Assembly: GCA_000002435.2 (NCBI GenBank)
Contig: CM018792.1
Origin: Giardia intestinalis
Taxonomy: Eukaryota
DNA: 64,000 bases
Direction: 5' to 3' (one strand)
Positions 6,045 to 22,638 of this stretch are shown piece by piece. How positions within the stretch are numbered: position 1 is the stretch's first letter; each line of letters opens with the position of its first letter. Position numbers and translations under genes: made by a program. The notes below the pieces were generated by a model. The model searched no databases, was not told the origin of the DNA, and was given only the letters and a program-made list of their open reading frames with translations.

Positions 6045-6221
6045 GCTCTCTGCGACCCACAAGTAAACTGCCGCTCTCTTAGAGGGGCAAGGCCTGGAGG
6101 AGCAGCGTTGCAGGCTGGTGCCTCGGGTTTCTAGCCTGCGCCCGGCACCATAGAGCAGGTGCTCCGAGCTGCCCGCCCACGGTATTTCTGAGGAGCCGCG
6201 ATCGCAATTGGGAGGCAAAGA

Positions 6222-6974
6222 ATGGCATTTATTGAGGCGGCCAAGGAGAACAGGCTGGACTACGTCAGGGCCCACAAGGCCGCGGACGCAGGCCAGAGGG
6301 ACGCAGACGGGAAGACGGCGCTCATGTGGGCCGCCGAGGCCGGGCACACCGCCGTCGCCCTGGAGCTGGTCGACGCAGAGGCGGGCCTGGTCTCGAACGA
6401 CGGGTCCTTTGCGCTGATTGCGGCGGCAAAGAGGGGGAACCTCGAGCTGATCCAGGCCCTTTTCGAGAAGGAGGGGAGGCTGCGGGACGCCGGCAAGCTC
6501 TCCGCCCTCAACCACGCCTCCAGGGCGAAGCAGTTCGAGGCGGCCAAGGTCCTCCGGCTGAAGACCATCGAGACGATGGACGCGGCGATGCTGGAGCAGC
6601 TCCGGCAGAGGGTCGCGGCCACCTACACCGAGATGGCCAAGAAGTCGCAGCAGGCCGAGGTCAAGAGCCACAACATGGCCATCTTCCGCTCGTTCTTCGA
6701 GGCGTTCTACTCCCTCTCCTGCTCGGGGATCGACCAGGGGGCGGAGATCTCGGAGGAGCAGCTGAACAAGTCCCTCGAGAAGTGCCTGGGCGAGATCCGC
6801 AAGCTCCTCAACTCGAAGAAGTACACGAAGTGCGTGAAGTGCCGCGCCAACGCCCCCAACCTGGTCTGCATGCCGTGCAAGCACTACGTCCTCTGCAAGG
6901 ACTGCGGGAAGGACGTGGCCAGCGAGGTCTGTCCTGGTCTGCGAGAACCCCCTTGGCACACTAGTAGGCACTGA
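6222..6974 (+). CDS. ankyrin-repeat / C-terminal RING-finger (MIB/IAP-type) protein; 3' end appears frameshifted
   Basis: Ankyrin repeats ([36 protein letters not shown]) are followed by [35 protein letters not shown], which fits C3HC4 through the seventh ligand. The eighth Cys is missing in this frame (CPGLRE) and is restored in the +1 frame (CPVCE). The region is very GC-rich, so long antisense ORFs overlap it. Confidence 0.7.
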
Positions 6975-7341
6975 TAGTACCGCTAAGGCATATGTAGGAG
7001 TATATGGCTGCTCCCGGTGTACAGCACCAACAGCTCTAACAACAGCTGGCATGACTGCTGCTGTGTGTACCTCCTGTGACAGTGGTAAGAAGCCCAACAA
7101 GGATGGCAGTGGGTGTGTAGTATGCTCTGACACCAACTGCAAGAGCTGTGTGGTGGACGGTGTGTGTGGGGAGTGCAACAGTGGCTTCAGTCTAGACAAT
7201 GGCAAGTGTGTGTCTATGAGCACGAACAAGAGCGGGCTCTCCACGGGGGCCATCGCTGGCATCTCCGTCGCGGCGGTTGTCGTCGTGGGGGGCCTCGTGG
7301 GCTTCCTCTGCTGGTGGTTCGTGTGTAGAGGGAAGGCGTAG
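6838..7341 (+). pseudogene. VSP (variant-specific surface protein) 3' fragment: CXXC-rich segment, transmembrane helix and CRGKA tail
   Basis: The called ORF (7051-7341) encodes [20 protein letters not shown] and [13 protein letters not shown] motifs, then [26 protein letters not shown] and a terminal CRGKA, the conserved VSP C-terminus. There is no signal peptide or N-terminal domain. The same frame stays open upstream to 6838, including CSRC. Confidence 0.6.
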
Positions 7342-7561: not shown

Positions 7562-7855
7562 ATGACGAGACCAACTCTGGAATTGCACATTAAGCTCGGT
7601 ATGACCATCTTTGACACCACGTTCAACAGATGTAAAGTGGCCCATGCAAAGGACGTCATAGTGCAAGCCCATTTAGACGATAAAATTAAGACTCTCCGAG
7701 AGCGCGCGCTTTCTAGTCTGTCTGTCTCCGTCACTCACGGTGATCTTCATTTTCAAGGATGTCCCCTTGATCCTCAGCAAACTGTAGCAGAGGCAAGATT
7801 GTCTAACGGGGATAGGCTCTACCTTTTTTACTCGGTTCCACGAGGATTGGAATGA
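7562..7855 (+). CDS. small ubiquitin-like (beta-grasp) protein, about 97 aa
   Basis: The ATG at 7562 is preceded by an AT-rich initiator (ctttaaaatttaaaATG). The sequence LELHIKLGMTIFDTTF...LHFQGCPLDPQQTVAEARLSNGDRLYLF resembles ubiquitin beta1-beta2 and the LIFAGKQLEDGRTLSDY...LHLV region, but there is no terminal GG. Confidence 0.45.
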   Translation: MTRPTLELHIKLGMTIFDTTFNRCKVAHAKDVIVQAHLDDKIKTLRERALSSLSVSVTHGDLHFQGCPLDPQQTVAEARLSNGDRLYLFYSVPRGLE

Positions 7856-7878: not shown

Positions 7879-8361
7879 TCAACGTTGTAGATAGGTTCTC
7901 ATTAGCACAAGGAAGTCATTATTGGTTGATTCCCTTACTAGCCATCTAGTGTTAAATTCAGCAGCAAGAGCGGTCTCCTCCTCGGCCTTCAGGCCCAGGC
8001 GCGCGGCGGCCCGGTTGGCGAAGTAGACGGCGCGCTGGTCTGGGGGCTCGTTGTTCGCGGCCGAGACCTCGATCGCCTGGGTGAAGAGCCGGATCGCCTC
8101 CTGGAAGTCCTCCGCCTTGAAGGCGGCGTTGCCCTGCGCCTTGAGCTCGCTGGAGCTTGTGCTGGAGACCGCCGGCGCCTTCGCCCCGCTCAGGATCTGC
8201 TCCAGGTCGCCGTTGCCGTGCCTGACGTCCTTGAGTCCGAAGCAGTCCCGGAGGCAATCGATGGCGACGTCCAGGTTGTCGGTGTCCTCAACGGCTTGCG
8301 CAGCCCTGAGGTAGAGGAGGTACTCGACGACGAGCCTCTTGGCGGCCAGCCTTGTCGTCAT
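7879..8361 (-). pseudogene. truncated duplicate of the SGT (Sgt2/SGTA-like) gene
   Basis: The first 134 codons are identical to the full-length SGT gene at 21757-22638. Identity ends exactly at the inverted-repeat boundary (7961), after which 26 unrelated codons run to a stop. The 5' initiator region is retained. Confidence 0.7.
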
Positions 8362-11300
8362 CTATTTTTAAGCAGTCGTTCACTCCCTCTCAAAGTACTC
8401 TCGCTGGTCCATGATCACAGAAACCACCGCGTTCATGTCGCGCCCGAGCCTGACATATGCCTCCCTCACCCGGTTGTAGTTCAGGTCGCCACCACAGATC
8501 CCGATGATCGTGGCGATGTTGTCCTCGTCGTCCGCGGTCAGCGGAGGGGGCTGCTCTGCAGGCTGCGGCGGCGCCCTTTCCCTTGGAATAAGGATCCCTC
8601 TCCCGGCCATCCCTGCCTCGATCATGTTCAGGTAGAGGTGGAGCACCTCAAGGAGCAAGTCGCGATCCTCGTTGAATCTCAGCACCAGATTGGGGCTCCA
8701 GTCGGATATCTGGGTTGTAAACATCTCCAAGAAGTTCGGTGTCTGGAGTATCTGCTCTAGCTCCTCGGTGCTGTACATGTGTGGTCTGTGGCTGTGTCTG
8801 GCCGCGCCCATGTGCCGGAGGGTGTCCTCGAGATCCTCTTCTGTCGGATCTTCGGCGATGATGGCAGCTGCCAGATCCATGTTGTTATTAGCCAGCTCGA
8901 GCGATATCTGCGCCAGCCGTGGCCTACAGGAAAAGGTCTCTACTAGCTGTGCGACGAGGTCCGAGTTGTTGCTAACTGGGTCTAGTTCTAAGGCATCTGA
9001 ATTGGATCCGGACGAGGAGTCTTGCACCTCAGCATGAGGATCTCGCGAAGCAGCCGATTCAATTTGCCGGGCCTGCGCGACCCCTGCGGCAGAACTGCTG
9101 GGAGGCGCTTCAAGGATCCTTCCGCGAGGTTTAGCCTGAGTGAATACTACGGTATCCTGAGTGATATTTGGAACCTTCGACAGTAGAATACCGTCATCAT
9201 TCAAGATAGATGCGTTGAGAATGAGACGGATGGTGGGCGCCTCTGCGGAGATGGCCTCAGCAACCTTCTTCCGCAGATCGCCGACGGTGCTATCTGGAAA
9301 AAACTCGAATGTCCTTGGCTCGAATTCCTTCACTGTGGACCTAACCGCGATCCTGATGCAATCAGACATTTTTTGTTTGCATAGACTAATAATTCACTTT
9401 ATCTCAGAGGGTGCGGTCACGGTTATCTCACCGGAGTAACAATCCGTTGTGCTCTGTGAGTGCCGATTGCTCTGCGGAACCATTTCCAGCGCCCTGACAA
9501 ATGAACGGTTAGAGCGTAGGGCCTTGTTAGCATACTGTGTATCCTCGCCTGCCACAAACTCTAACCCTAAGAAGTCGGCCATTTCGACATTGTTTGCTGA
9601 TGTTTCATGCCTAGACGCGAGGTGCGGCGCCTTCGACTGCGCTCGGCTCTTAGGCTTGAAAGCATTTGCTGCATGTAAATCCCCAAGCTGCCTTTCCTCT
9701 CTTCCGCAGGCGGCAGTGTTTTTCCGAGCAGGTAAAGAAACATCGCCAACTGATTGATGCCTTGCTGACAACTCAAGTTTGTTCTGAGACATATTGCCTT
9801 GAAGCTTACTCCCGTTATTAGGTAGGATGTTTCCCCCTTGAGACCTATTAGAAGTTAGTGAATTCTTGACTGTCGGGACGATTTCTTCTTGAGTTGAGCA
9901 GGAAACTACATCCCTCGCCGAAGCAGAAAGGTGACCTTGCTTGAGTGAGGCACCAAGCTCGCCTGCAATAGAGCTGCCACTCAGACGTGTACACGCAAGA
10001 TTAGCTGAGCTATCGTTTTGACAGATGATGATAGAATGGCTCTCCCCTTCTGTGTGAGGAAACTCAACAATGGTGTCCCGGCCGGAAAAGGAAACCCGGT
10101 CCTTTGTGGAAGTCGCTGGTTGCCCTTTAGCTCGTTTCTCGACCGCTTCAACACCTGCACTGGCCATGTTCTGCTTGCTAGTGTACCTGCTCTCCGAAAA
10201 TAACTCACCAGAGGTAACATTAGCATCATCCTCACTCATCGATGAAGTGGAATGCTGAGTCTCGACCTGCGATAGCCTGACATGTCGGCTTTCAAGGCAG
10301 TCAGCCGTAACAACTGTGTGGCCAAGCTTACTCAGGTGCTTCCCGTCGAAGTCGACGCTTTTGTTTTGCCGTAAGATGGACTGAAAGTTGGAATTGCGTA
10401 GTATGGAAGAGTTAGACAGCGCATGTCGCACACTCTGCTGAGATGAAGGATTGTCCGCGTCACATGTCCTTGGCGTCTTTGCACTAACTCTGAATTCATT
10501 GGTAGTCGTGGCACTATTTTGTGATAGAGATGTTCTGCTCAGCGAGTAGGGATCTTTGCTTTCCTGCCCCAGCGGAAGCGTGACCAGGCTTATGTTGCTA
10601 TCGCTGGAGGGTGTCTGTGGGAGGAGAGGGGCCGGACGCAGACGCTGAAAATCTGTTGAATGAGGTGCTCTGTCGCTATAGACTGGTGGTGAAGCTACTG
10701 AATCCCCTGTCAGAGGGAGAGTTGGCGGTATATAAATGGGGGTTATAGAAGTGTTTTGCCTGTCGTTCCTCATGTTGCTAAGCGGAACGTGCTTCGGTAT
10801 CTGAGTATCCTTGTAAATCGTAGAATCTTCTGTCAGGTGGCTTTCATTCTTTACATCCAAGTCAATCACTGTGGTCGAGGAAGCATGCGCCGAATGGACA
10901 TCGCCGGGGTCTTCCGACGAGGAATCCGAATAGTAATAGTAAGACTCTTCGTCGCTCTCCATTGAGTTGTAGTCCAGTTGACTGTGGTCACTGTCCTTCT
11001 TCTTGCTAACTGGTTCCTGTTTTTGCGCAGCAGGAAGTGTTGCCCTGGACTGAGTAGACGACGTAGTAATGGGCATTATGTCGGGCATTTTTCCGGTGAT
11101 GATAGGGAAAACCCGGGTAGCTTTTGGCCGAGTAGACTCTGACTTGGCAGAGTTTGTTACAGGGAAGGGCAAGCTTGCTATCTGCGTGATTAGGGGGAGC
11201 TGAGTATATGGCACCTTTTTCAACGGCAATGACACTGATGTTGCATTTTGCAGGGTCGTCAGTCGGTTTGGAGACACAATGACGGGCGCGGGCTGTACAT

Positions 11301-12089
11301 CTGGGCATAACGGAATTGATCGTTTTGTCGAGATCGACTCTGATGTATTTAGTGGAAACTTTACAGACTGTTCCTGCAAACAAGAAGGGTCTTGAGCATT
11401 AGTTGTTCGACGCGCAGAGCTCACGTGCATCCTATACCGACGATCCTTACTTGATGTAATTCGGGGCGCCCCCTGTAATTGGTACGGAGGAACAAGTTTT
11501 GGTACGGAAGTTCGGAACGGGATAGCCGAGCTTATCTCACTAGCTTCGTCTTGCTTAGTTCGTCCAAGAGTGAAGCAAATATTCCCAAAGTTTTCCGGAA
11601 ATTTCGTTGAAGGAATGACAATAGAGAGTGGAGGCGGGCGGAAGCTGGAAGAGTCACTAACAGTGCAATCGCTAGTAACCCTACTAAGAGAGAAGTTTGC
11701 TGGGCGAGCCGGCTCATTCGGCATGTGGAGGGATATACTTGAGCCCATAGAGACGCCAGCGGCTTCAGGAATGGGCAAGCCACCAAGCTGATTCTGAGAA
11801 GCACCGAGCCCCACCTCCCTCTCGGATCCGTTAGACTTAGACTGTCTTTCTATTTCCCGAGAAGACTTCTCGTTACACACAGCACTACAGGAGGCTACTT
11901 TTACCTCTGCAAGGTCTGGCCTAAACGAGTCGGCACTTTTCACCTCTTCCACGTTGTTTAGGGCTGTTGCGTGACCTGCGCATGTCTCTTGGCGGCCTTC
12001 AAAGGACGACGTTTTGCTAGTCACCTCCTTACACTCTTCAAGAGACGGCGGCGCGTCCGAGTCCAGCGCGGAAATCTGTCCGCTGCGCC
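7961..12089. repeat. inverted repeat arm A (4129 bp), reverse-complement of 18029-22157
   Basis: Every ORF in the arm has an identical reverse-strand twin, and coordinates map as x to 30118-x. Junction bases were checked by eye at 7961/22157 and at 12089/18029. Confidence 0.85.
8380..9369 (-). CDS. UBL-UBA domain protein (ubiquilin/Dsk2/Rad23-like shuttle-factor architecture), copy 1
   Basis: The N-terminal ubiquitin-like fold is IRIAVRSTVKEFEPRTFEFFPDSTVGDLRKKVAEAIS...TVVFTQ. The C-terminal UBA-like helix bundle is IATIIGICGGDLNYNRVREAYVRLGRDMNAVVSVIMDQ. It is 329 aa and identical to the copy at 20749-21738. Confidence 0.7.
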   Translation of the reverse strand: MSDCIRIAVRSTVKEFEPRTFEFFPDSTVGDLRKKVAEAISAEAPTIRLILNASILNDDGILLSKVPNITQDTVVFTQAKPRGRILEAPPSSSAAGVAQARQIESAASRDPHAEVQDSSSGSNSDALELDPVSNNSDLVAQLVETFSCRPRLAQISLELANNNMDLAAAIIAEDPTEEDLEDTLRHMGAARHSHRPHMYSTEELEQILQTPNFLEMFTTQISDWSPNLVLRFNEDRDLLLEVLHLYLNMIEAGMAGRGILIPRERAPPQPAEQPPPLTADDEDNIATIIGICGGDLNYNRVREAYVRLGRDMNAVVSVIMDQREYFERE

Positions 12090-15000
12090 TTTCAAATGAG
12101 CTTGTAATCGTCTTCTGCCCCAAAATCCCTATACTCTCTGGGGTTCCTTCTGTTCGAACTTCGGTGTCTATGAAAGCTTGAAGTTCATTGGGAGAACTTG
12201 TTTGCGAGAGAGCATACCCCAGCCCCTTGACAGAGTGATTCTGGTCTTTGGGAAGGTTCTTAACTAGCGTGTCTATACGCAGTTCGATTAGAGAGCCTGT
12301 GTTTTCCCTATAGAACGAGCCCTTTAGGGGCGTGGGAAGTAAAAACGAGGATTCAATAGCAGCTTCATAGAGAGACTTGAGTGATGAGGTGGAGCGTTGG
12401 CTGAGTTCGTTGCAGGTTATATTAGCTCGTTGTTGGCATGCATCGACTGGGGCGCGTGTGCAGTCCACCATCGAGGATTCAGGTACATCATCCAGACCAG
12501 GGATTTCGCAAAGCTGTGACGTGGAGGAAGAAACGGACTCAATCCGCAAAACAAGGGAGGTTAGCGATGGACACGATGAAGCATCACTCAACGCTACCGC
12601 ACCCAGCTCATCGTCATCGTATTGTGGTGAGCAGCTTGGCATCGGAGAAGATAAGATACTTATGGAGGCAGTGCTTATATTCTGGGAGGAGGTGAACACA
12701 GAGTCGCGATCCTTCAAGACTTTCGGACCAAGCTGAGAAAGATGAATGGCCAGAGACGCAGCCGCCCCCAGTGCATAGCCTACTTGCGCCTCTAGTGATA
12801 TGTAGGGGGCATTTGGAATGCAGGTAACGAAGCCTGTGTAATGTCTCCAATCGAAAACTGCGCCAGATCTAGTATTTGTTGCACAAGTACACTTATTGTA
12901 GGGAGTGCACGACGTAGAAGAGACACCGTCTTTGCTGATGGGAGATGCAACCTTCTGGGATTCTAGTGAGGAGGCAAACAAGTTGGGTAAGTACTTGTTA
13001 GAAAGGGTCAGCATCTTTTCCCGAATATGAATAAGCTTAATATCAACACTACGACTCATCACAGAAAGGGGCACGGAGCGGAAACTTTGAACATCAAAAG
13101 AGTCAGAGCAAACCCCCGAAGTTTGCCCCATTGCCTGCGTGCATGGATCGGGCAAAGTAACTGCAGAAGATAGAGGCATATCTGCGGAATTCTGCGGTGC
13201 ATCACCTTCGTTAAAAATATGTCCGGATATGGTCCTAATAGGAGGTTTAGAATCGTAACTAAACACGGAGCCACTGAGGCGGGAAGTTGAATAGATCTGT
13301 CCATGTTTTAAGAGCGAGCTATCCTTGCTCGTAGGAACCCCTGTGACGCCTCTGCCATCTTTCAGACAGGAGGTGGTCTGGAGAGATTGAACTACGGTGT
13401 TAAAAGTACAAGGTGGGATATTATAATGTGCATCTTTAACAATAGTTAAAAGGGCAAACGACTTCAAACCTACCATAGCCTCTTCTGCGGAGCTTTCCAT
13501 GTCTTCAGTATCCAAATCTAGGCCTAATTGCAAAATGATCTCTACAAGAGAGGCAAAAAGGTGCTCGTCATCTGACGCTGGGAGCAAGGTCGTGATGCTA
13601 CTCTTTGACGAAACCCGAGATATGGTTTTGAGGTGGTCCTCCTCGTCTGTTGTAAATGTCCTGTTTTGATCCGAATCGTCCGTTACAATCATGTGTGGCG
13701 CAGCTACGGATCGATTGTATGCCATTTTTACTTTGGAAAGGCTTGATGTTGCTGTCTCCAAAGAATCCAGCCCAATCAACTCAGTCTTGCTGGAGAGGGA
13801 GTAAAGGTCTGTAACGTTTTGACTACGAACCCCCTCGTCTTCTATCAAGCTCTGATTGTCTGAGTCTTCAGAGTTGTATCGAATGTGGTTAGGAAAGTCG
13901 CAAGTCTGGTTAGCCAAAGGGCTGTTAGAAATGTTACAGACCATGTTGTTTAACGATGACCCGACAGTTCTGGTCTTAGTATCGTCTAAGCGACCTGTCC
14001 TTGAAGTAGACGAGAAGGTGTCACGAGAAAGGTCTTTTGTGACGCTAGCCGCGTCGGCTAAATAATCTATAGAAAAGGAAGACACGTTTGAAGGAGCAAG
14101 ACTCTCGTCCAGCCCGCCACCAGCAGTATGACGGTATACAGACGAGTAGGCGCCAGAATCTTCTGCTCGAACGCGGGCCTTCTTATAGGTCTCAACTGGA
14201 ACATGGCGAAGTATTTCACGTAGTTTTTTAGTAGCGTGGACGGATCTGCGTACACTCATACGACTGGAGAGGTTTCCATCACGACTGCGAGGAACCAGCA
14301 GCACCGGGTCAGAAGAGGTTGAGTCGTTTTCTGTGTCTGGCTCGGAAAGTGATTCAGCCTGATACCGACCATTGTTACTGGCAACAATCCCACAAATTTT
14401 TAGTTCGCGCTCATTGAAAAGCTTCAGATCGGCGTCGTTGTTTATGCGAGGTCTCCAGTGGGTGGGAAGCGTATATAGAAACTCTTCGTCGGGATAGACT
14501 GGAAGGCGATCGAGAAGGTCCTCATCGAACTGGAAGGGCTCATTAGTGTGCTCAACTGCTTCTGTTTCTTCGTAACTCTTGTATGCATAAATGAGTTCTT
14601 GGAGCTCGGGCGTTTGATAGTTGAGAATCTGATTTCGCGAGTATCCACGAGTGAAAAAGGGATGATCCATAAGCGAGTGCAAGTGTTCCGAGCATCCGTA
14701 TCGCTTGGTAGGGTGGGCCATGAGGCCGTGGATCAGATCCCAAGCTTCGTCGCTGATGAAGTCAGGCCGAGACACACACTTATCATAGTCCTCTTCTGTC
14801 TTTATAGCAGCCAATCGCTGCACTAGCTCGTCAGGAGTCGATGCAACAAAAGCAACTTCGCCGGTCAGCAGCTCATATAATATGAGCCCGAGGGCCCAGT
14901 AGTCCACCGACCGCCCATAGGCCGGTGCATTGAAGATTTCTGGAGCCATATATTCAACGGTGCCAACTATCTCACGTTCTCCAACCAGTAGGGAGCTTGT

Positions 15001-17406
15001 TTCTCTTGTTGAAGAAATCTTCGTGGTGCTGGTCTGCTTTTCGGATACCTTGACAGCCTCGATAAGAGGAGAAGCACCCTCGTCAACGGATGGAAGCTGC
15101 TCTGCAAGCCCAAAGTCCGCTAAGAGAATATGACCATCATCACGGAAGAGGAAATTAAGCGGCTTGAGATCTCTATGCACAAAGATATCGATGAGTTGCT
15201 TAGACTCGTCACAGGGAAGATTTTGCGGAGGTGCAGGAGGTTTTGGTGGTAAAGCTTGCGAGAGATGAGGATCCACTCTCAGCTGTGACTGCTTAGGAGC
15301 CGCCGACTTGGCTGCAGGTTGCTGGTTCCTGAGAACATTTGTCGTGGAAAGAGACGCGGTATGTCCTGACGATTGCGTACGGGACAGATTCTGCGCAGTA
15401 GTGCCGGACAGGTTGAAACGCTCAGGAGGAAGAGGATGTAACGGAATTCGAGATCCATTTATTACTGGATTAGGCAGATGCTGCATGGTTGTACTATCTA
15501 AAGAAGCAGCCCCAGATTGTTCTGGAGGCAGCGCACTGATCATCATCGGCCGACTAAGAGCAGGGGAGGAAAGCCCGGGGACTAGCAGATTTCTTTGTGA
15601 ACTATTCTCAACGCGAGTCCTAGATGCTAATATGAAGGAGGAGTCGGCATCGCGTCCATCTAAGAAGCTTGCCTCCGTTATCTCTACATTTTCAGCCGGG
15701 GTTGCGACCTCTATACAGTCCTCGGATTCGGGCTGCCAGAAGGAGGCCTGAGTGAGTCCAGACAACGGTCCGCTCAGAGTAGATGTAGCATTTTCTGAAA
15801 TGCTAGCAGAGCCTCGTTGTATAGAACTAGAGGGCGTTTCCGAAGAGGTATGCAAGGGACAACGCTTACTTGACAAAAGATGGCTAGAGTTCTGATTTTG
15901 TTTCGATGAGGAGCTGGAGTCGTCGGGATCGGTGGTGGGAGCAGTTTCCATGCGACTCAGTAACGATCTCTGGACGACAGGCTTTGGACCCTGTTTGGAC
16001 TGTTTGCTGGAAAAGATAAGAGGAACAGGGGGGATGAGATTCGAAATGTCGCTTTTTTCCACAAGGTTCATGGGCGTGACATCGACCACCGGAGGAGGAA
16101 TTGGAGGTATTGCAAATCTGAGAAGCATCTTGTCAAATGATACTTGGTGGAGTGAAGCATTCGGTAGCGGAGCTGATTTGCTTGTGGAAAAGGCTGGGAT
16201 CTTATTTGTATTGGCCCTAGAATTCTTAAGGGCAAGTTTTGCTTTTTGTAGGCTACTTATTGCTGATCGCTGAGATTCTGAAAGAATGGGTGACGACCCC
16301 AAAGGCAAGGAAACCTTAGGTTGCGCACTCTCTGAGCGCACGGAGGCTTTGGCTTGAATCTCAAACAAGATGCTGTCGGTGAAGTGAGACGATACTTCGC
16401 TAGTCTTGGCAGAGGCTACCAAGTCATTGGATTCTGAAGAATTGGAGTCGGAGCTGCTGGAGGAATGGTAGTGACTATTTGCCTCACGCCTGGCCTCATC
16501 TGCCATGATTTCATTCACTACCTCTGCATTAGGCTGGTTCTGGTGCAGATCCAGATGCCTTTCCCCTCGATGTGCGATATGACCGTGTAAAGTTAAAACA
16601 GCGCAAACTATTTCTGCAAACCATCTCCTGGCCCAGCCTTCGCTGACACTCCCGACTATGTCCAGAAGAGATTTCATATCACCTCCAGCAGCATAGTCCA
16701 TAACAAAGTATATGTTTTCATCGTCGTAAAACGCATAGTGGAGGCCGACGATGAAAGACGAGCGAATGCGCATCATTATGCAGCGCTCTATGCGAAGACG
16801 TATTCTGTCTGAAAGATTTTTCATCTTGCTCTTGTTGATTTTCTTGAGGGCGAACAGCTGACCCGAAAACTTGTGCTTCACAAGGTGGACAGACGCATAA
16901 GCGCCAGAGCCAATGTCCTTTAAAAGGTAGAAGTAGTCCATTGAAATACCAGACCGCCGAGAACGCAAAAGAAACGATTCACGTATGTAAATCGTGTTCA
17001 TGAAGTCAGTCAGTGAAATCTGCTGAGTGTCCGACAGTGCCAGAGAATTCATGATAGTTAGATAGCGCTCCTTGTGTACCTGTTCACTATCATCATTTAG
17101 TCTGGGTAGTGCCTCGCCATTTTGAATGGCGTCATTTAGAGATTTAGAAGTATAGGGGTTCAATTCTGAAGAGAGATCATTGAGAAGGGGGCGTTGGCTG
17201 GAGTACTGCTTGCAGCGCTCTGGGCTAAGCAGTTGCTGCGACGCCTCTTCAATGAGATGCTCAAACATTCCTATCTGCGCTTCCTTGAGCCGGTGCTCCC
17301 GGCTCAGCAGATATGCAAACATCTCTTGAATGGAATCCTCCACAAACTTACTGAACATCGATATCCGCCCCTCGGTATCTTTATCCAACTCAAGATCTGA
17401 AGTCAT
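9394..17406 (-). CDS. giant (2670 aa) AGC-family-like (MAST/Greatwall-like) Ser/Thr protein kinase with large low-complexity inserts and a long S/T-rich tail
   Basis: The N-lobe has GSGAYASV, FALKKI and YFVMDYAAGGDMKSLL. A degenerate catalytic-loop-like stretch (LTLHGHIAHRGERHLDLH) is followed by an insert of about 445 aa, then genuine HRDLKPLNFLF, LADFGLAEQ, a 45 aa insert, GTVEYMAPE, DYWALGLILYELLTG and an AGC-type HPFF tail. The ATG at 17404-17406 has an AT-rich initiator. The 3' 2.7 kb lies in IR arm A. Confidence 0.75.
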   Translation of the reverse strand: MTSDLELDKDTEGRISMFSKFVEDSIQEMFAYLLSREHRLKEAQIGMFEHLIEEASQQLLSPERCKQYSSQRPLLNDLSSELNPYTSKSLNDAIQNGEALPRLNDDSEQVHKERYLTIMNSLALSDTQQISLTDFMNTIYIRESFLLRSRRSGISMDYFYLLKDIGSGAYASVHLVKHKFSGQLFALKKINKSKMKNLSDRIRLRIERCIMMRIRSSFIVGLHYAFYDDENIYFVMDYAAGGDMKSLLDIVGSVSEGWARRWFAEIVCAVLTLHGHIAHRGERHLDLHQNQPNAEVVNEIMADEARREANSHYHSSSSSDSNSSESNDLVASAKTSEVSSHFTDSILFEIQAKASVRSESAQPKVSLPLGSSPILSESQRSAISSLQKAKLALKNSRANTNKIPAFSTSKSAPLPNASLHQVSFDKMLLRFAIPPIPPPVVDVTPMNLVEKSDISNLIPPVPLIFSSKQSKQGPKPVVQRSLLSRMETAPTTDPDDSSSSSKQNQNSSHLLSSKRCPLHTSSETPSSSIQRGSASISENATSTLSGPLSGLTQASFWQPESEDCIEVATPAENVEITEASFLDGRDADSSFILASRTRVENSSQRNLLVPGLSSPALSRPMMISALPPEQSGAASLDSTTMQHLPNPVINGSRIPLHPLPPERFNLSGTTAQNLSRTQSSGHTASLSTTNVLRNQQPAAKSAAPKQSQLRVDPHLSQALPPKPPAPPQNLPCDESKQLIDIFVHRDLKPLNFLFRDDGHILLADFGLAEQLPSVDEGASPLIEAVKVSEKQTSTTKISSTRETSSLLVGEREIVGTVEYMAPEIFNAPAYGRSVDYWALGLILYELLTGEVAFVASTPDELVQRLAAIKTEEDYDKCVSRPDFISDEAWDLIHGLMAHPTKRYGCSEHLHSLMDHPFFTRGYSRNQILNYQTPELQELIYAYKSYEETEAVEHTNEPFQFDEDLLDRLPVYPDEEFLYTLPTHWRPRINNDADLKLFNERELKICGIVASNNGRYQAESLSEPDTENDSTSSDPVLLVPRSRDGNLSSRMSVRRSVHATKKLREILRHVPVETYKKARVRAEDSGAYSSVYRHTAGGGLDESLAPSNVSSFSIDYLADAASVTKDLSRDTFSSTSRTGRLDDTKTRTVGSSLNNMVCNISNSPLANQTCDFPNHIRYNSEDSDNQSLIEDEGVRSQNVTDLYSLSSKTELIGLDSLETATSSLSKVKMAYNRSVAAPHMIVTDDSDQNRTFTTDEEDHLKTISRVSSKSSITTLLPASDDEHLFASLVEIILQLGLDLDTEDMESSAEEAMVGLKSFALLTIVKDAHYNIPPCTFNTVVQSLQTTSCLKDGRGVTGVPTSKDSSLLKHGQIYSTSRLSGSVFSYDSKPPIRTISGHIFNEGDAPQNSADMPLSSAVTLPDPCTQAMGQTSGVCSDSFDVQSFRSVPLSVMSRSVDIKLIHIREKMLTLSNKYLPNLFASSLESQKVASPISKDGVSSTSCTPYNKCTCATNTRSGAVFDWRHYTGFVTCIPNAPYISLEAQVGYALGAAASLAIHLSQLGPKVLKDRDSVFTSSQNISTASISILSSPMPSCSPQYDDDELGAVALSDASSCPSLTSLVLRIESVSSSTSQLCEIPGLDDVPESSMVDCTRAPVDACQQRANITCNELSQRSTSSLKSLYEAAIESSFLLPTPLKGSFYRENTGSLIELRIDTLVKNLPKDQNHSVKGLGYALSQTSSPNELQAFIDTEVRTEGTPESIGILGQKTITSSFERRSGQISALDSDAPPSLEECKEVTSKTSSFEGRQETCAGHATALNNVEEVKSADSFRPDLAEVKVASCSAVCNEKSSREIERQSKSNGSEREVGLGASQNQLGGLPIPEAAGVSMGSSISLHMPNEPARPANFSLSRVTSDCTVSDSSSFRPPPLSIVIPSTKFPENFGNICFTLGRTKQDEASEISSAIPFRTSVPKLVPPYQLQGAPRITSSKDRRYRMHVSSARRTTNAQDPSCLQEQSVKFPLNTSESISTKRSIPLCPDVQPAPVIVSPNRLTTLQNATSVSLPLKKVPYTQLPLITQIASLPFPVTNSAKSESTRPKATRVFPIITGKMPDIMPITTSSTQSRATLPAAQKQEPVSKKKDSDHSQLDYNSMESDEESYYYYSDSSSEDPGDVHSAHASSTTVIDLDVKNESHLTEDSTIYKDTQIPKHVPLSNMRNDRQNTSITPIYIPPTLPLTGDSVASPPVYSDRAPHSTDFQRLRPAPLLPQTPSSDSNISLVTLPLGQESKDPYSLSRTSLSQNSATTTNEFRVSAKTPRTCDADNPSSQQSVRHALSNSSILRNSNFQSILRQNKSVDFDGKHLSKLGHTVVTADCLESRHVRLSQVETQHSTSSMSEDDANVTSGELFSESRYTSKQNMASAGVEAVEKRAKGQPATSTKDRVSFSGRDTIVEFPHTEGESHSIIICQNDSSANLACTRLSGSSIAGELGASLKQGHLSASARDVVSCSTQEEIVPTVKNSLTSNRSQGGNILPNNGSKLQGNMSQNKLELSARHQSVGDVSLPARKNTAACGREERQLGDLHAANAFKPKSRAQSKAPHLASRHETSANNVEMADFLGLEFVAGEDTQYANKALRSNRSFVRALEMVPQSNRHSQSTTDCYSGEITVTAPSEIK

Positions 17407-17436
17407 TAGGGTAACTTTTTTGGTTCAAAACTAAAT
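17407..17436. promoter_or_regulatory. 30 bp AT-rich bidirectional initiator region between divergent kinase and LRR genes
   Basis: The sequence tagggtaacttttttggttcaaaactaaat separates two ATGs that face away from each other. This matches the short AT-rich Giardia promoter architecture. Confidence 0.5.
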
Positions 17437-17994
17437 ATGACTCAGCGCCTCGGAATCGTTGACTTTTCCAATATAGACGTCAAGTCTCCTCAGGAGCTTG
17501 TGGAGGAAGAGTCCAATTGCAAGACTCGCAAGCCGGTTAAGGTCCAGGACGCTAAGAAACCGCGACCTGGGGACCAGGGACTCCGCATTGCAAATTGCGA
17601 GCTCAACACGCTATCTGGGATCACTACCCTTGTCGACGCTGCAATATGGTATCCGGAGCGGCTGTGCATGATGGATCTATCCTGCAATAAAATCACCACC
17701 GTTACTGAATTGGCGAATTTCCCAAACTTACGCATTTTATATCTACAGGGGAATCGTATCCAGGACGTCAGGGATCTAGCTCCCCTGTCGTCACTTTCTC
17801 TCTTAACATCCTTGACAATTCACGGAAATCCACTAGTTGCACAGAAGAACTTTCGACCATGGATCGTCCACAATCTCCCTCAGATCACCAAGCTGGATAA
17901 CATCCCTGTAACTGCTCGTGAGCGGAGAGACGCCGAGCAGCTTGTAAAGCTGGGGGCTGTTAGTTTAGTGCGAGATAACAATCTCAATGTCTAG
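17437..17994 (+). CDS. leucine-rich-repeat protein (SDS22 / LRR-cap type), 185 aa
   Basis: LRR consensus runs in LSCNKITTVTELANFPNLRILYLQGNRIQDVRDLAPLSSLSLLTSLTIHGNPL, followed by an LRRcap-like PWIVHNLPQITKLDNIPVT. Confidence 0.75.
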   Translation: MTQRLGIVDFSNIDVKSPQELVEEESNCKTRKPVKVQDAKKPRPGDQGLRIANCELNTLSGITTLVDAAIWYPERLCMMDLSCNKITTVTELANFPNLRILYLQGNRIQDVRDLAPLSSLSLLTSLTIHGNPLVAQKNFRPWIVHNLPQITKLDNIPVTARERRDAEQLVKLGAVSLVRDNNLNV

Positions 17995-18028
17995 CTTTGT
18001 AAATACCTTCGAAGTGTCGTTCAGCTGG

Positions 18029-20724
18029 GGCGCAGCGGACAGATTTCCGCGCTGGACTCGGACGCGCCGCCGTCTCTTGAAGAGTGTAAGGAGGTGACTA
18101 GCAAAACGTCGTCCTTTGAAGGCCGCCAAGAGACATGCGCAGGTCACGCAACAGCCCTAAACAACGTGGAAGAGGTGAAAAGTGCCGACTCGTTTAGGCC
18201 AGACCTTGCAGAGGTAAAAGTAGCCTCCTGTAGTGCTGTGTGTAACGAGAAGTCTTCTCGGGAAATAGAAAGACAGTCTAAGTCTAACGGATCCGAGAGG
18301 GAGGTGGGGCTCGGTGCTTCTCAGAATCAGCTTGGTGGCTTGCCCATTCCTGAAGCCGCTGGCGTCTCTATGGGCTCAAGTATATCCCTCCACATGCCGA
18401 ATGAGCCGGCTCGCCCAGCAAACTTCTCTCTTAGTAGGGTTACTAGCGATTGCACTGTTAGTGACTCTTCCAGCTTCCGCCCGCCTCCACTCTCTATTGT
18501 CATTCCTTCAACGAAATTTCCGGAAAACTTTGGGAATATTTGCTTCACTCTTGGACGAACTAAGCAAGACGAAGCTAGTGAGATAAGCTCGGCTATCCCG
18601 TTCCGAACTTCCGTACCAAAACTTGTTCCTCCGTACCAATTACAGGGGGCGCCCCGAATTACATCAAGTAAGGATCGTCGGTATAGGATGCACGTGAGCT
18701 CTGCGCGTCGAACAACTAATGCTCAAGACCCTTCTTGTTTGCAGGAACAGTCTGTAAAGTTTCCACTAAATACATCAGAGTCGATCTCGACAAAACGATC
18801 AATTCCGTTATGCCCAGATGTACAGCCCGCGCCCGTCATTGTGTCTCCAAACCGACTGACGACCCTGCAAAATGCAACATCAGTGTCATTGCCGTTGAAA
18901 AAGGTGCCATATACTCAGCTCCCCCTAATCACGCAGATAGCAAGCTTGCCCTTCCCTGTAACAAACTCTGCCAAGTCAGAGTCTACTCGGCCAAAAGCTA
19001 CCCGGGTTTTCCCTATCATCACCGGAAAAATGCCCGACATAATGCCCATTACTACGTCGTCTACTCAGTCCAGGGCAACACTTCCTGCTGCGCAAAAACA
19101 GGAACCAGTTAGCAAGAAGAAGGACAGTGACCACAGTCAACTGGACTACAACTCAATGGAGAGCGACGAAGAGTCTTACTATTACTATTCGGATTCCTCG
19201 TCGGAAGACCCCGGCGATGTCCATTCGGCGCATGCTTCCTCGACCACAGTGATTGACTTGGATGTAAAGAATGAAAGCCACCTGACAGAAGATTCTACGA
19301 TTTACAAGGATACTCAGATACCGAAGCACGTTCCGCTTAGCAACATGAGGAACGACAGGCAAAACACTTCTATAACCCCCATTTATATACCGCCAACTCT
19401 CCCTCTGACAGGGGATTCAGTAGCTTCACCACCAGTCTATAGCGACAGAGCACCTCATTCAACAGATTTTCAGCGTCTGCGTCCGGCCCCTCTCCTCCCA
19501 CAGACACCCTCCAGCGATAGCAACATAAGCCTGGTCACGCTTCCGCTGGGGCAGGAAAGCAAAGATCCCTACTCGCTGAGCAGAACATCTCTATCACAAA
19601 ATAGTGCCACGACTACCAATGAATTCAGAGTTAGTGCAAAGACGCCAAGGACATGTGACGCGGACAATCCTTCATCTCAGCAGAGTGTGCGACATGCGCT
19701 GTCTAACTCTTCCATACTACGCAATTCCAACTTTCAGTCCATCTTACGGCAAAACAAAAGCGTCGACTTCGACGGGAAGCACCTGAGTAAGCTTGGCCAC
19801 ACAGTTGTTACGGCTGACTGCCTTGAAAGCCGACATGTCAGGCTATCGCAGGTCGAGACTCAGCATTCCACTTCATCGATGAGTGAGGATGATGCTAATG
19901 TTACCTCTGGTGAGTTATTTTCGGAGAGCAGGTACACTAGCAAGCAGAACATGGCCAGTGCAGGTGTTGAAGCGGTCGAGAAACGAGCTAAAGGGCAACC
20001 AGCGACTTCCACAAAGGACCGGGTTTCCTTTTCCGGCCGGGACACCATTGTTGAGTTTCCTCACACAGAAGGGGAGAGCCATTCTATCATCATCTGTCAA
20101 AACGATAGCTCAGCTAATCTTGCGTGTACACGTCTGAGTGGCAGCTCTATTGCAGGCGAGCTTGGTGCCTCACTCAAGCAAGGTCACCTTTCTGCTTCGG
20201 CGAGGGATGTAGTTTCCTGCTCAACTCAAGAAGAAATCGTCCCGACAGTCAAGAATTCACTAACTTCTAATAGGTCTCAAGGGGGAAACATCCTACCTAA
20301 TAACGGGAGTAAGCTTCAAGGCAATATGTCTCAGAACAAACTTGAGTTGTCAGCAAGGCATCAATCAGTTGGCGATGTTTCTTTACCTGCTCGGAAAAAC
20401 ACTGCCGCCTGCGGAAGAGAGGAAAGGCAGCTTGGGGATTTACATGCAGCAAATGCTTTCAAGCCTAAGAGCCGAGCGCAGTCGAAGGCGCCGCACCTCG
20501 CGTCTAGGCATGAAACATCAGCAAACAATGTCGAAATGGCCGACTTCTTAGGGTTAGAGTTTGTGGCAGGCGAGGATACACAGTATGCTAACAAGGCCCT
20601 ACGCTCTAACCGTTCATTTGTCAGGGCGCTGGAAATGGTTCCGCAGAGCAATCGGCACTCACAGAGCACAACGGATTGTTACTCCGGTGAGATAACCGTG
20701 ACCGCACCCTCTGAGATAAAGTGA
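18029..20724 (+). pseudogene. promoterless duplicate of the 3' part (C-terminal ~898 codons) of the giant kinase gene, in IR arm B
   Basis: The 876 aa track ORF (18094-20724) is identical to the C-terminal 876 aa of the 9394-17406 product. The track ORF opens with GTG at 18094 and lacks a start/initiator of its own; the copy begins abruptly at the repeat boundary, 35 bp after the LRR gene stop. Confidence 0.7.
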
Positions 20725-20748
20725 ATTATTAGTCTATGCAAACAAAAA

Positions 20749-21738
20749 ATGTCTGATTGCATCAGGATCGCGGTTAGGTCCACAGTGAAGGAATTCGAGC
20801 CAAGGACATTCGAGTTTTTTCCAGATAGCACCGTCGGCGATCTGCGGAAGAAGGTTGCTGAGGCCATCTCCGCAGAGGCGCCCACCATCCGTCTCATTCT
20901 CAACGCATCTATCTTGAATGATGACGGTATTCTACTGTCGAAGGTTCCAAATATCACTCAGGATACCGTAGTATTCACTCAGGCTAAACCTCGCGGAAGG
21001 ATCCTTGAAGCGCCTCCCAGCAGTTCTGCCGCAGGGGTCGCGCAGGCCCGGCAAATTGAATCGGCTGCTTCGCGAGATCCTCATGCTGAGGTGCAAGACT
21101 CCTCGTCCGGATCCAATTCAGATGCCTTAGAACTAGACCCAGTTAGCAACAACTCGGACCTCGTCGCACAGCTAGTAGAGACCTTTTCCTGTAGGCCACG
21201 GCTGGCGCAGATATCGCTCGAGCTGGCTAATAACAACATGGATCTGGCAGCTGCCATCATCGCCGAAGATCCGACAGAAGAGGATCTCGAGGACACCCTC
21301 CGGCACATGGGCGCGGCCAGACACAGCCACAGACCACACATGTACAGCACCGAGGAGCTAGAGCAGATACTCCAGACACCGAACTTCTTGGAGATGTTTA
21401 CAACCCAGATATCCGACTGGAGCCCCAATCTGGTGCTGAGATTCAACGAGGATCGCGACTTGCTCCTTGAGGTGCTCCACCTCTACCTGAACATGATCGA
21501 GGCAGGGATGGCCGGGAGAGGGATCCTTATTCCAAGGGAAAGGGCGCCGCCGCAGCCTGCAGAGCAGCCCCCTCCGCTGACCGCGGACGACGAGGACAAC
21601 ATCGCCACGATCATCGGGATCTGTGGTGGCGACCTGAACTACAACCGGGTGAGGGAGGCATATGTCAGGCTCGGGCGCGACATGAACGCGGTGGTTTCTG
21701 TGATCATGGACCAGCGAGAGTACTTTGAGAGGGAGTGA
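20749..21738 (+). CDS. UBL-UBA domain protein, copy 2 (identical to 8380-9369)
   Basis: Same 329 aa product as copy 1. It lies immediately upstream of, and co-oriented with, the full-length SGT gene, with an 18 bp gap. Confidence 0.7.
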   Translation: MSDCIRIAVRSTVKEFEPRTFEFFPDSTVGDLRKKVAEAISAEAPTIRLILNASILNDDGILLSKVPNITQDTVVFTQAKPRGRILEAPPSSSAAGVAQARQIESAASRDPHAEVQDSSSGSNSDALELDPVSNNSDLVAQLVETFSCRPRLAQISLELANNNMDLAAAIIAEDPTEEDLEDTLRHMGAARHSHRPHMYSTEELEQILQTPNFLEMFTTQISDWSPNLVLRFNEDRDLLLEVLHLYLNMIEAGMAGRGILIPRERAPPQPAEQPPPLTADDEDNIATIIGICGGDLNYNRVREAYVRLGRDMNAVVSVIMDQREYFERE

Positions 21739-21756
21739 ACGACTGCTTAAAAATAG

Positions 21757-22638
21757 ATGACGACAAGGCTGGCCGCCAAGAGGCTCGTCGTCGAGTACCT
21801 CCTCTACCTCAGGGCTGCGCAAGCCGTTGAGGACACCGACAACCTGGACGTCGCCATCGATTGCCTCCGGGACTGCTTCGGACTCAAGGACGTCAGGCAC
21901 GGCAACGGCGACCTGGAGCAGATCCTGAGCGGGGCGAAGGCGCCGGCGGTCTCCAGCACAAGCTCCAGCGAGCTCAAGGCGCAGGGCAACGCCGCCTTCA
22001 AGGCGGAGGACTTCCAGGAGGCGATCCGGCTCTTCACCCAGGCGATCGAGGTCTCGGCCGCGAACAACGAGCCCCCAGACCAGCGCGCCGTCTACTTCGC
22101 CAACCGGGCCGCCGCGCGCCTGGGCCTGAAGGCCGAGGAGGAGACCGCTCTTGCTGCCAAGGACTGCGAGGAGAGTGTGCGCCTTTGTCCAAGCTACCAC
22201 AAGGCGTGGTTCCGCCTCGGGAATATCCGTGAGAGTGCTGGTAATAAGCCTGAGGCGTACAGGGCGTACAGCCAGGCCCTGACGGCAGACCCTAGCAATC
22301 CGAAGTATCGCGAAGCCCGTGATCGTGTCAGCGAGGGCCGTCCTGAACAAGCCACCCCTGACCTCTCAGCACTTGCCAATAACCCTCTCTTTTCGCAGCT
22401 TCGGGATGATCCTGAAATTATCGCCTTGATGCAAAACCCCAAGGTGGCTGACCTTTTATCTAAAGTTAACTCGAATCCAATGGCCATTATGGGCGCCATG
22501 TCAGACCCGGAACTAGCCCCTATTTTCCAGCGCCTCGTCCAAAAGCTTGGGCCACAGCTTTCTAGCATGCTCGGTGGACTTGGTGGACTTTTCGGAGGAG
22601 GCGGAGCGAACTCTCCACCCTCGGGTATGTACTCGTGA
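21757..22638 (+). CDS. SGT: small glutamine-rich TPR co-chaperone SGT (Sgt2/SGTA homolog), 293 aa
   Basis: The N-terminal dimerisation helix KRLVVEYLLYLRAA...LDVAIDCLRDCFGL matches SGTA KRLAYAIIQFLHDQL...LEVAIQCLETAFGV. Three TPRs follow (ELKAQGNAAFKAEDFQEAIRLFTQAIE..., AVYFANRAAARLGL, AWFRLGNI). The C-terminus has NNPLF, Q/M-rich and Gly-rich segments. Confidence 0.9.
   Translation: MTTRLAAKRLVVEYLLYLRAAQAVEDTDNLDVAIDCLRDCFGLKDVRHGNGDLEQILSGAKAPAVSSTSSSELKAQGNAAFKAEDFQEAIRLFTQAIEVSAANNEPPDQRAVYFANRAAARLGLKAEEETALAAKDCEESVRLCPSYHKAWFRLGNIRESAGNKPEAYRAYSQALTADPSNPKYREARDRVSEGRPEQATPDLSALANNPLFSQLRDDPEIIALMQNPKVADLLSKVNSNPMAIMGAMSDPELAPIFQRLVQKLGPQLSSMLGGLGGLFGGGGANSPPSGMYS

Follow-up and report, generated by a model that had tools for sequence, protein, structure and literature searches.

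We examined two adjacent genes in a 64-kb stretch of DNA (the window, 64,000 nt at its full length), which the coordinates of a proteomics supplement place on chromosome 4 of Giardia intestinalis WB. The upstream gene encodes a 329-amino-acid (aa) protein with ubiquitin-like (UBL) and ubiquitin-associated (UBA) domains, and the downstream gene encodes the co-chaperone SGT/Sgt2. It is likely that these are two independent housekeeping proteostasis genes, the first of them probably specifying a very divergent RAD23-type shuttle factor, which are neighbours owing to the compactness of the genome and to an order inherited in the genus, and which do not constitute a coupled unit. A preliminary description of this DNA had proposed a triage module for tail-anchored proteins, for which we find no support: the upstream protein has no docking lysines, the gap between the genes is ordinary, each gene has its own transcription signals, and the adjacency is limited to Giardia. 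Gene names were obtained by exact sequence look-up, and gene identifiers, like the chromosomal coordinates, were taken from the proteomics supplement. The pair is laid out as follows:

20749-21738, plus strand: RAD23-like UBL-UBA gene, an open reading frame (ORF) of 329 aa; GL50803_115338; KAE8303472.1, 'Ubiquitin-like protein'; product detected by mass spectrometry
21739-21756, plus strand: intergenic spacer between the 329-aa gene and SGT, 18 nt, acgactgcttaaaaatag, containing an A/T-rich initiator-like element of SGT
21757-22638, plus strand: full-length SGT/Sgt2 co-chaperone gene, an ORF of 293 aa; GL50803_7287; KAE8303473.1; annotated as SGT

These ORF coordinates agree with the earlier placement of the UBL-UBA gene 18 bp upstream of SGT on one strand. 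In existing annotation, GL50803_115338 and its second copy, GL50803_115337, carry the labels 'hypothetical' or 'ubiquitin-like protein'. Both proteins of the pair are expressed in trophozoites, where mass spectrometry covered 39 % of the sequence of the 329-aa protein and 72 % of that of SGT. Literature searches found no paper describing Giardia SGT, Giardia RAD23 or an interaction between RAD23 and SGT.

Identity of the two proteins

To begin with the downstream product, its earlier assignment to SGT was borne out. Pfam matches to TPR_1 (50.6 bits), TPR_2 (47.9 bits) and STI1-HOP_DP (41.4 bits, with a threshold of 29.1) were all above threshold in the 293-aa protein, and a weak match to SGTA_dimer fell below its threshold of 26.8 (21.5 bits, E=2e-4, in the full-length protein; E=6.9e-5 in a truncated copy considered below). 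Matches in the PDB were to Sgt2 (9llv, E=4.8e-15, with residues 64-287 aligned) and, for the TPR region, to SGTA (2vyi, E=1e-14) and Sgt2 (5lyn, E=3.5e-14). Having a single TPR domain and a single DP domain, the protein is SGT rather than HOP. Its domains are:

aa 1-60: putative dimerisation/UBL-docking helices
aa 68-190: TPR domain
aa 209-260: STI1/DP domain
C-terminus: Gly/Met-rich tail

Like SGTA and Sgt2, the Giardia protein has three TPRs and, at the C-terminus, an STI1/DP domain, and its putative N-terminal helical domain shows the motif LxVAIxCLxxxFG and acidic residues, with LDVAIDCLRDCFG aligned to LEVAIQCLETAFG of a hand-entered SGTA sequence. Unlike them, it is short (293 aa), ends in a Gly/Met-rich rather than a Gln-rich region, scores below threshold with SGTA_dimer, and is accompanied in the genome by a separate truncated N-terminal copy. 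The N-terminal helix pair would serve for dimerisation and UBL docking and the TPR carboxylate clamp for binding the tails of Hsp70 and Hsp90, while the STI1/DP domain and the Gly/Met-rich region would hold tail-anchor segments before their hand-off to Get3.

The upstream protein was more difficult to place. The single 329-aa sequence gave a sub-threshold match to the Pfam ubiquitin model and a weak match to the UBL of yeast Rad23, and a word-indexed search returned four clusters, all from G. duodenalis. Among 1.84 billion representatives, a profile search produced only 8 matches, including the G. muris orthologue and three proteins of relatives; the five strong ones (E<=1e-10) were from Giardia or from relatives in metagenome or read-archive assemblies. 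When a nine-sequence family profile was compared with the PDB, the top match was full-length human RAD23A (1oqy, E=1.6e-6), with profile positions 14-234 aligned to residues 12-247 of the hHR23A chain, that is, from the UBL through UBA1 and beyond, and the next in rank were RAD23B and then the UBL of yeast Rad23. The nine-sequence alignment was also used for an AlphaFold2 model (mean pLDDT, the predicted local distance difference test score, 70.9), which replaced a poor model from the single sequence (pLDDT 50.8). Four folded domains, most of them with pLDDT of ~80-94, are predicted, with disordered linkers between them:

aa 1-80: UBL with a beta-grasp fold, N-terminal as in RAD23
aa 136-172: UBA1 three-helix bundle (helices 136-146, 150-159 and 164-172), pLDDT ~80, as in RAD23
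aa 201-256: four-helix XPC-binding/STI1-like domain, pLDDT 76-84
aa 279-321: UBA2 three-helix bundle, pLDDT 86-90

The top Foldseek match of this model was again full-length RAD23A (1oqy, E=7.8e-5, 394 aligned columns), the sole match at E<=0.001 that spanned the whole length and several domains. For the isolated central domain, XPC-binding was the only Pfam model to recur, in 3 of 8 family members (best E=0.0021, sub-threshold), and sub-threshold UBA matches were obtained for the G. muris member (Pfam UBA, E=0.0028) and for member P0044 (UBA_4, E=0.003). Profiles of the isolated central domain and of the isolated UBA2 gave no significant match in the PDB.

The 329-aa protein resembles RAD23 and hHR23A/B in the order and number of its predicted folded domains and in its long disordered linkers, in its best solved-structure match by both profile and Foldseek, in having a UBL closest in sequence to that of yeast Rad23, and in a central domain that matches, weakly, the Pfam XPC-binding model only; it differs in being extremely divergent, with no Pfam model at threshold. 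On this evidence, GL50803_115338 and GL50803_115337 probably encode a RAD23-type shuttle factor (UBL, UBA, four-helix domain, UBA). The assignment is a modest new result, the genes themselves having been annotated already. The earlier reading of the product as a UBL-UBA protein holds for the UBL and for the UBA-like three-helix bundles, but profile and Foldseek comparisons place it with RAD23 and not with Get5, UBL4A or BAG6, and RAD23 is absent from the partners that had been named for the SGT N-domain (Get5/UBL4A, BAG6, ubiquilins). Binding to the proteasome (Rpn1/Rpn10), to polyubiquitin and to Rad4/XPC or Png1 is characteristic of RAD23. If the protein acts as its family does, its N-terminal UBL would engage receptors of the proteasome, its pair of UBA bundles would bind ubiquitin chains, and its central XPC-binding/STI1-like domain would bind partner proteins.

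We also considered whether the protein might be a ubiquilin/Dsk2-type factor (UBL, STI1, UBA), in which case its STI1-like central domain would itself chaperone transmembrane segments, in parallel to SGT. XPC-binding and STI1 domains are related, one weak family match (P0048) fits both the UBQLN1 and the XPC-binding models, the UBLs of Dsk2 and ubiquilin are among the weak PDB matches, and the combination of UBL, STI1-like domain and UBA is that of a similar quality-control adaptor. However, two UBA-like bundles around a single four-helix domain are the arrangement of RAD23, the best whole-length matches of both the sequence profile and Foldseek are RAD23A and RAD23B, and the Pfam matches of the central domain are to XPC-binding and not to the UBQLN or STI1 models, making a ubiquilin an unlikely identity. 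The useful outcome of the RAD23-type assignment is one of annotation: Giardia's probable proteasome shuttle of this type is present in two identical copies, and the assignment bears on the organism's reduced ubiquitin-proteasome and DNA-repair inventories.

Docking surface, transcription signals and gene order

The proximity of the two genes raised the possibility that the 329-aa protein binds through its UBL to the N-terminal dimer of SGT, that failed tail-anchored or other hydrophobic clients pass from there to the UBA shuttle for delivery to the proteasome, and that selection for co-expression keeps the two genes linked. Binding of UBLs by SGTA and Sgt2 is electrostatic, with the acidic residues D27, E30, E33 and E40 of SGTA facing lysines such as K46 and K66 of UBL4A, and an L-K-G-K motif within the basic docking surface is shared by UBL4A and Get5 (PMC4240585). 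At the positions that correspond to UBL4A K46, K48 and K66, the 329-aa UBL carries N, S and D/T. In the four members of the Giardia family that were aligned, the KGK position reads LNAS, HSAA, LAAS or LSTS and the K66 position is D or T, such that the other three members are also non-basic at K46/K48/K66 and at the Get5 KGK. The net charge of the UBL is -1, versus +5 for UBL4A. The UBL4A and Get5 reference sequences used in these comparisons were entered by hand, and matched UBL4A and MDY2 in the PDB near-identically (~2 bits/residue). The preliminary description had expected the UBL to offer SGT the conserved Sgt2-binding surface; at the sequence level that surface is lacking, its basic residues being missing. 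The 329-aa UBL is thus unlike those of Get5, UBL4A and BAG6 in having none of the contact lysines (UBL4A K46/K66, Get5 KGK). The protein as a whole (UBL, UBA, helical domain, UBA) is unlike Get5 and UBL4A in that no Get4-binding or BAG6-binding region was found in it, matches to Get5/UBL4A in Pfam and the PDB being confined to the UBL, if any, and in that it carries UBA domains, absent from both Get5 and UBL4A.

The spacing of the two genes was compared with that of other genes in the window. Intergenic gaps of 41 nt or less account for 13 of 34, the median in the window is 81 nt, and the published genome-wide median for Giardia is 81 bp (PMC7641422). The 18-nt spacer is ordinary for this compact genome, and the close spacing that had been taken for an unusual physical coupling lies within the normal range of gaps.

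Transcription signals were read directly from the sequence. The consensus for polyadenylation at the 3' ends of Giardia mRNAs is AGTRAAY, and motifs of this form are found at the ends of both genes:

21734-21740, plus strand: AGTGAAC, polyadenylation signal of the Giardia type, overlapping the 329-aa gene's stop codon
22641-22647, plus strand: AGTGAAT, at the SGT stop

AGTGAAT is also present at the stop of a kinase copy described below. Directly 5' of the SGT ATG is TTAAAAATAG, and the 329-aa gene likewise has an A-rich stretch before it. Each gene has a polyadenylation signal and an A-rich initiator of its own, the same pattern is seen at neighbouring genes, and the arrangement is not that of a shared transcript. 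Given these separate signals, the 329-aa gene and SGT read as monocistronic units, and each would be transcribed alone, from its own A-rich initiator to its own AGTGAAY signal.

Conservation of the pair was then evaluated. The order and strand of the 329-aa gene and SGT are kept in assemblages A and B, in other divergent G. duodenalis assemblages, in G. muris (L007) and in a muris-like organism, so the head-to-tail adjacency described earlier is real. A spacer of ~0.9 kb separates the G. muris genes, and the two muris-type genomes show no conservation in it, although their flanking genes are ~80 % identical. The median intergenic distance published for G. muris is 37 bp. A hidden conserved gene in the long spacers (7092-8000 in L007 and 2538-3510 in L009) was considered and rejected, as these contain short ORFs only and show no conservation. 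None of the other nine G. muris neighbour genes maps to the 64-kb WB window, and the pair consequently stands as an isolated two-gene collinear block. Local synteny is widespread among the 3043 one-to-one orthologues that the two species share, according to the G. muris genome paper (PMC7641422).

The adjacency was not found in three more distant relatives (L008/L012, L013 and L014/L015). In the L008/L012 sample, a Raptor-like gene is upstream of SGT and unrelated genes are downstream of the UBL-UBA gene, and in the other two, no TPR was found among the neighbouring genes. An abutment of L008 (SGT) and L012 (UBL-UBA) in reverse order was rejected, since these contigs of the same sample have no overlap and differ in GC content (62 % vs 51 %). 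A large Nucleoporin_N gene is located one gene away from the UBL-UBA homologue in two of the more distant relatives (L012 3111-8729; L014 373-6408), a linkage that differs from the local one in Giardia.

Several observations weigh against two independent genes. Of the four acidic docking residues, three are retained in Giardia SGT (E25, D28 and D31, aligned to D27, E30 and E33 of SGTA), and because of this its N-domain has probably not lost the ability to bind a UBL of some kind. Throughout Giardia the genes stay adjacent and in one orientation, even in G. muris and despite rearrangement on both flanks, and survival there as an isolated two-gene block is a weak argument for coupling. By a rough estimate that assumes ~20 such genes in Giardia, a UBL gene would stand beside SGT by chance with a probability of ~1 %. 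Both proteins are expressed, and in one proteome, that of an Mlf knockout, both are up ~1.4-fold (-log p 1.7 and 1.05), a parallel rise that weakly favours a module. A second UBL gene is found beside the truncated SGT copy. Finally, the RAD23 assignment itself draws on Pfam scores below threshold and on a predicted structure, the latter in particular for the central domain and UBA2.

In contrast, the UBL, with its net negative charge, shows non-basic residues at the UBL4A and Get5 contact positions in all four aligned members, and its RAD23-type context offers no site for Get4 or BAG6; the genes have separate signals and an unexceptional gap, which in G. muris is long and non-conserved; they are apart in the three more distant relatives; and only part of SGT was duplicated with its neighbour. 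Taking docking and selected linkage together, we judge a triage module to be quite unlikely. It is also improbable that the RAD23-like protein has taken over the degradation arm of a reduced pre-targeting system, as it would if it docked non-canonically on the acidic SGT N-domain (through its own UBL or through a separate 97-aa UBL protein), with its UBAs and UBL routing failed tail-anchored clients to the proteasome, the genus-wide linkage reflecting selection for co-dosage, and the conserved N-terminal SGT fragment modulating SGT dimers. Get5, UBL4A and BAG6 were not encountered here, no search aimed at them having been made. If true, such a module would provide a handle on the choice between insertion and degradation of tail-anchored proteins in a parasite with a minimal GET system, but the tests point the other way, toward two independently acting genes.

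Inverted duplication of the 329-aa gene

The window contains one inverted repeat, with arms of 4129 nt that are 100 % identical and a spacer of 5939 nt between them. The arms and the genes that they affect are:

7879-8361, minus strand: truncated SGT copy, GL50803_104994, annotated as hypothetical; 160 aa, comprising the N-domain, ~1.5 TPR repeats and a 26-aa unrelated read-through tail
7961-12089: left arm of the repeat, with a sequence 100 % identical to that of the right one; co-terminal with Logan contig L006
8380-9369, minus strand: second, identical 329-aa RAD23-like gene, GL50803_115337; KAE8303468.1
9394-17406, minus strand: full-length kinase gene, 2670 aa, KAE8303469.1; the left arm takes in its 3' end and the spacer its 5' 5.3 kb
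18029-22157: right arm of the inverted duplication, with the 3' 2.7 kb of the kinase, the entire 329-aa gene and SGT codons 1 to ~134
18370-20724: truncated kinase copy, within the right arm

SGT had been described as duplicated together with the UBL-UBA gene. The entire 329-aa gene is indeed copied, but SGT is copied only in part, because the end of the repeat (22157) falls inside it, at about codon 134. The outcome is a RAD23-like gene in two copies, a single full SGT and an N-terminal fragment of SGT. A 4.1-kb inverted duplication would, by this account, have happened to take the whole RAD23-like gene while cutting SGT and the kinase at its two ends.

Arms that are 100 % identical over 4129 nt could reflect an error of assembly, in which case the two copies next to SGT would be artefactual, and the spacer has opposite orientations in two assemblage-B assemblies. 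However, independent assemblies break off precisely where the arms end. Logan contig L006, which comes from a different assemblage-A-like isolate, has a length of exactly 4129 nt, with both ends matching the arm ends, and contigs of two further samples (71-74 % identical to WB) end at the same position in SGT. The unique left junction was recovered in a sample ~75 % identical at the nucleotide level, where a contig with the 97-aa gene joins the arm contig by an exact 30-nt (k-1) overlap at the same SGT codon. The truncated SGT ORF of this divergent assemblage has 144 aa, with an identical junction codon and another tail, so that the tail is not conserved. In addition, assemblage-B contigs show the inner junction with inverted ends that are 100 % identical, and the annotation of isolate DH also includes a truncated SGT. 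On the basis of the co-terminal independent contig and the conserved left junction, we rejected an artefact as the source of the repeat, and consider the chance of one to be very small.

The 4129-nt duplication is common to G. duodenalis assemblages that are ~25 % diverged at the nucleotide level (loci L002, L003, L004, L006, L010, L011 and L016), and in each of these its junction falls at one and the same SGT codon. The two WB arms share 100 % identity, and the parts of the arms assembled in assemblage B are also identical to each other. Divergence of ~25 % between assemblages, combined with identity of the arms within a genome, points to ongoing gene conversion between them, and the comparison implies an inverted duplication that is old within G. 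duodenalis, with arms that gene conversion would have homogenised. Being kept across deeply diverged assemblages and 100 % identical within a genome, the 4.1-kb duplication may be of more interest to work on Giardia genome dynamics than the gene pair.

Two assemblage-B contigs differ in the region that corresponds to the spacer (12090-18028). In L010, the order is a leucine-rich repeat (LRR) gene on the plus strand, truncated kinase, 329-aa gene and SGT, matching that of the window, and in L011 it is LRR (minus), full kinase (plus), 329-aa gene and SGT, which is the opposite orientation of the spacer. This difference is either a flip-flop inversion across the inverted repeat or an ambiguity of assembly.

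The duplication also yields a stable N-terminal fragment of SGT. The truncated copy (7879-8361) retains its own upstream region, which is inside the arm, as well as the putative dimerisation/UBL-docking domain and ~1.5 TPR repeats. In the proteomics table it (GL50803_104994) is grouped with GL50803_7287 and is not told apart from it. If expressed, the fragment could heterodimerise with full-length SGT.

Small UBL-like gene and neighbouring reading frames

A small UBL-only gene had been reported to abut the other boundary of the repeat:

7562-7855, plus strand: 97-aa UBL-like gene, GL50803_107659, convergent with the truncated SGT copy and 105 nt outside the repeat boundary

A real gene with a weak ubiquitin match is present near the boundary, but it stands 105 nt outside it. 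The Pfam ubiquitin match of the 97-aa protein is below threshold (E=6e-4), its best PDB matches, NEDD8 and ubiquitin, are non-significant, and it has no C-terminal di-glycine. Compared with the divergent assemblage, substitutions at codon positions 1, 2 and 3 number 16, 4 and 40, and the ORF is a real coding gene under purifying selection. Homologues were found in 3 clusters only, all from G. duodenalis. Descent of this UBL from a common source with that of the 329-aa protein, as its paralogue, was rejected because the two could not be aligned. The 97-aa UBL is also without lysines at the docking positions, and the site of its gene by the repeat junction looks coincidental.

Just upstream of this gene, a short ORF (7051-7341, plus strand) terminates in ...CRGKA, which is the C-terminal signature of the variant-specific surface proteins of Giardia, and is probably a fragment or pseudogene of that family. 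In a GC-rich stretch, two long ORFs overlap on opposite strands, one at 6222-6974 (plus) and the other at 5907-7262 (minus). The first, of 250 aa, looks ankyrin-repeat/RING-like by eye, and the second, a 451-aa antisense ORF, is probably spurious.

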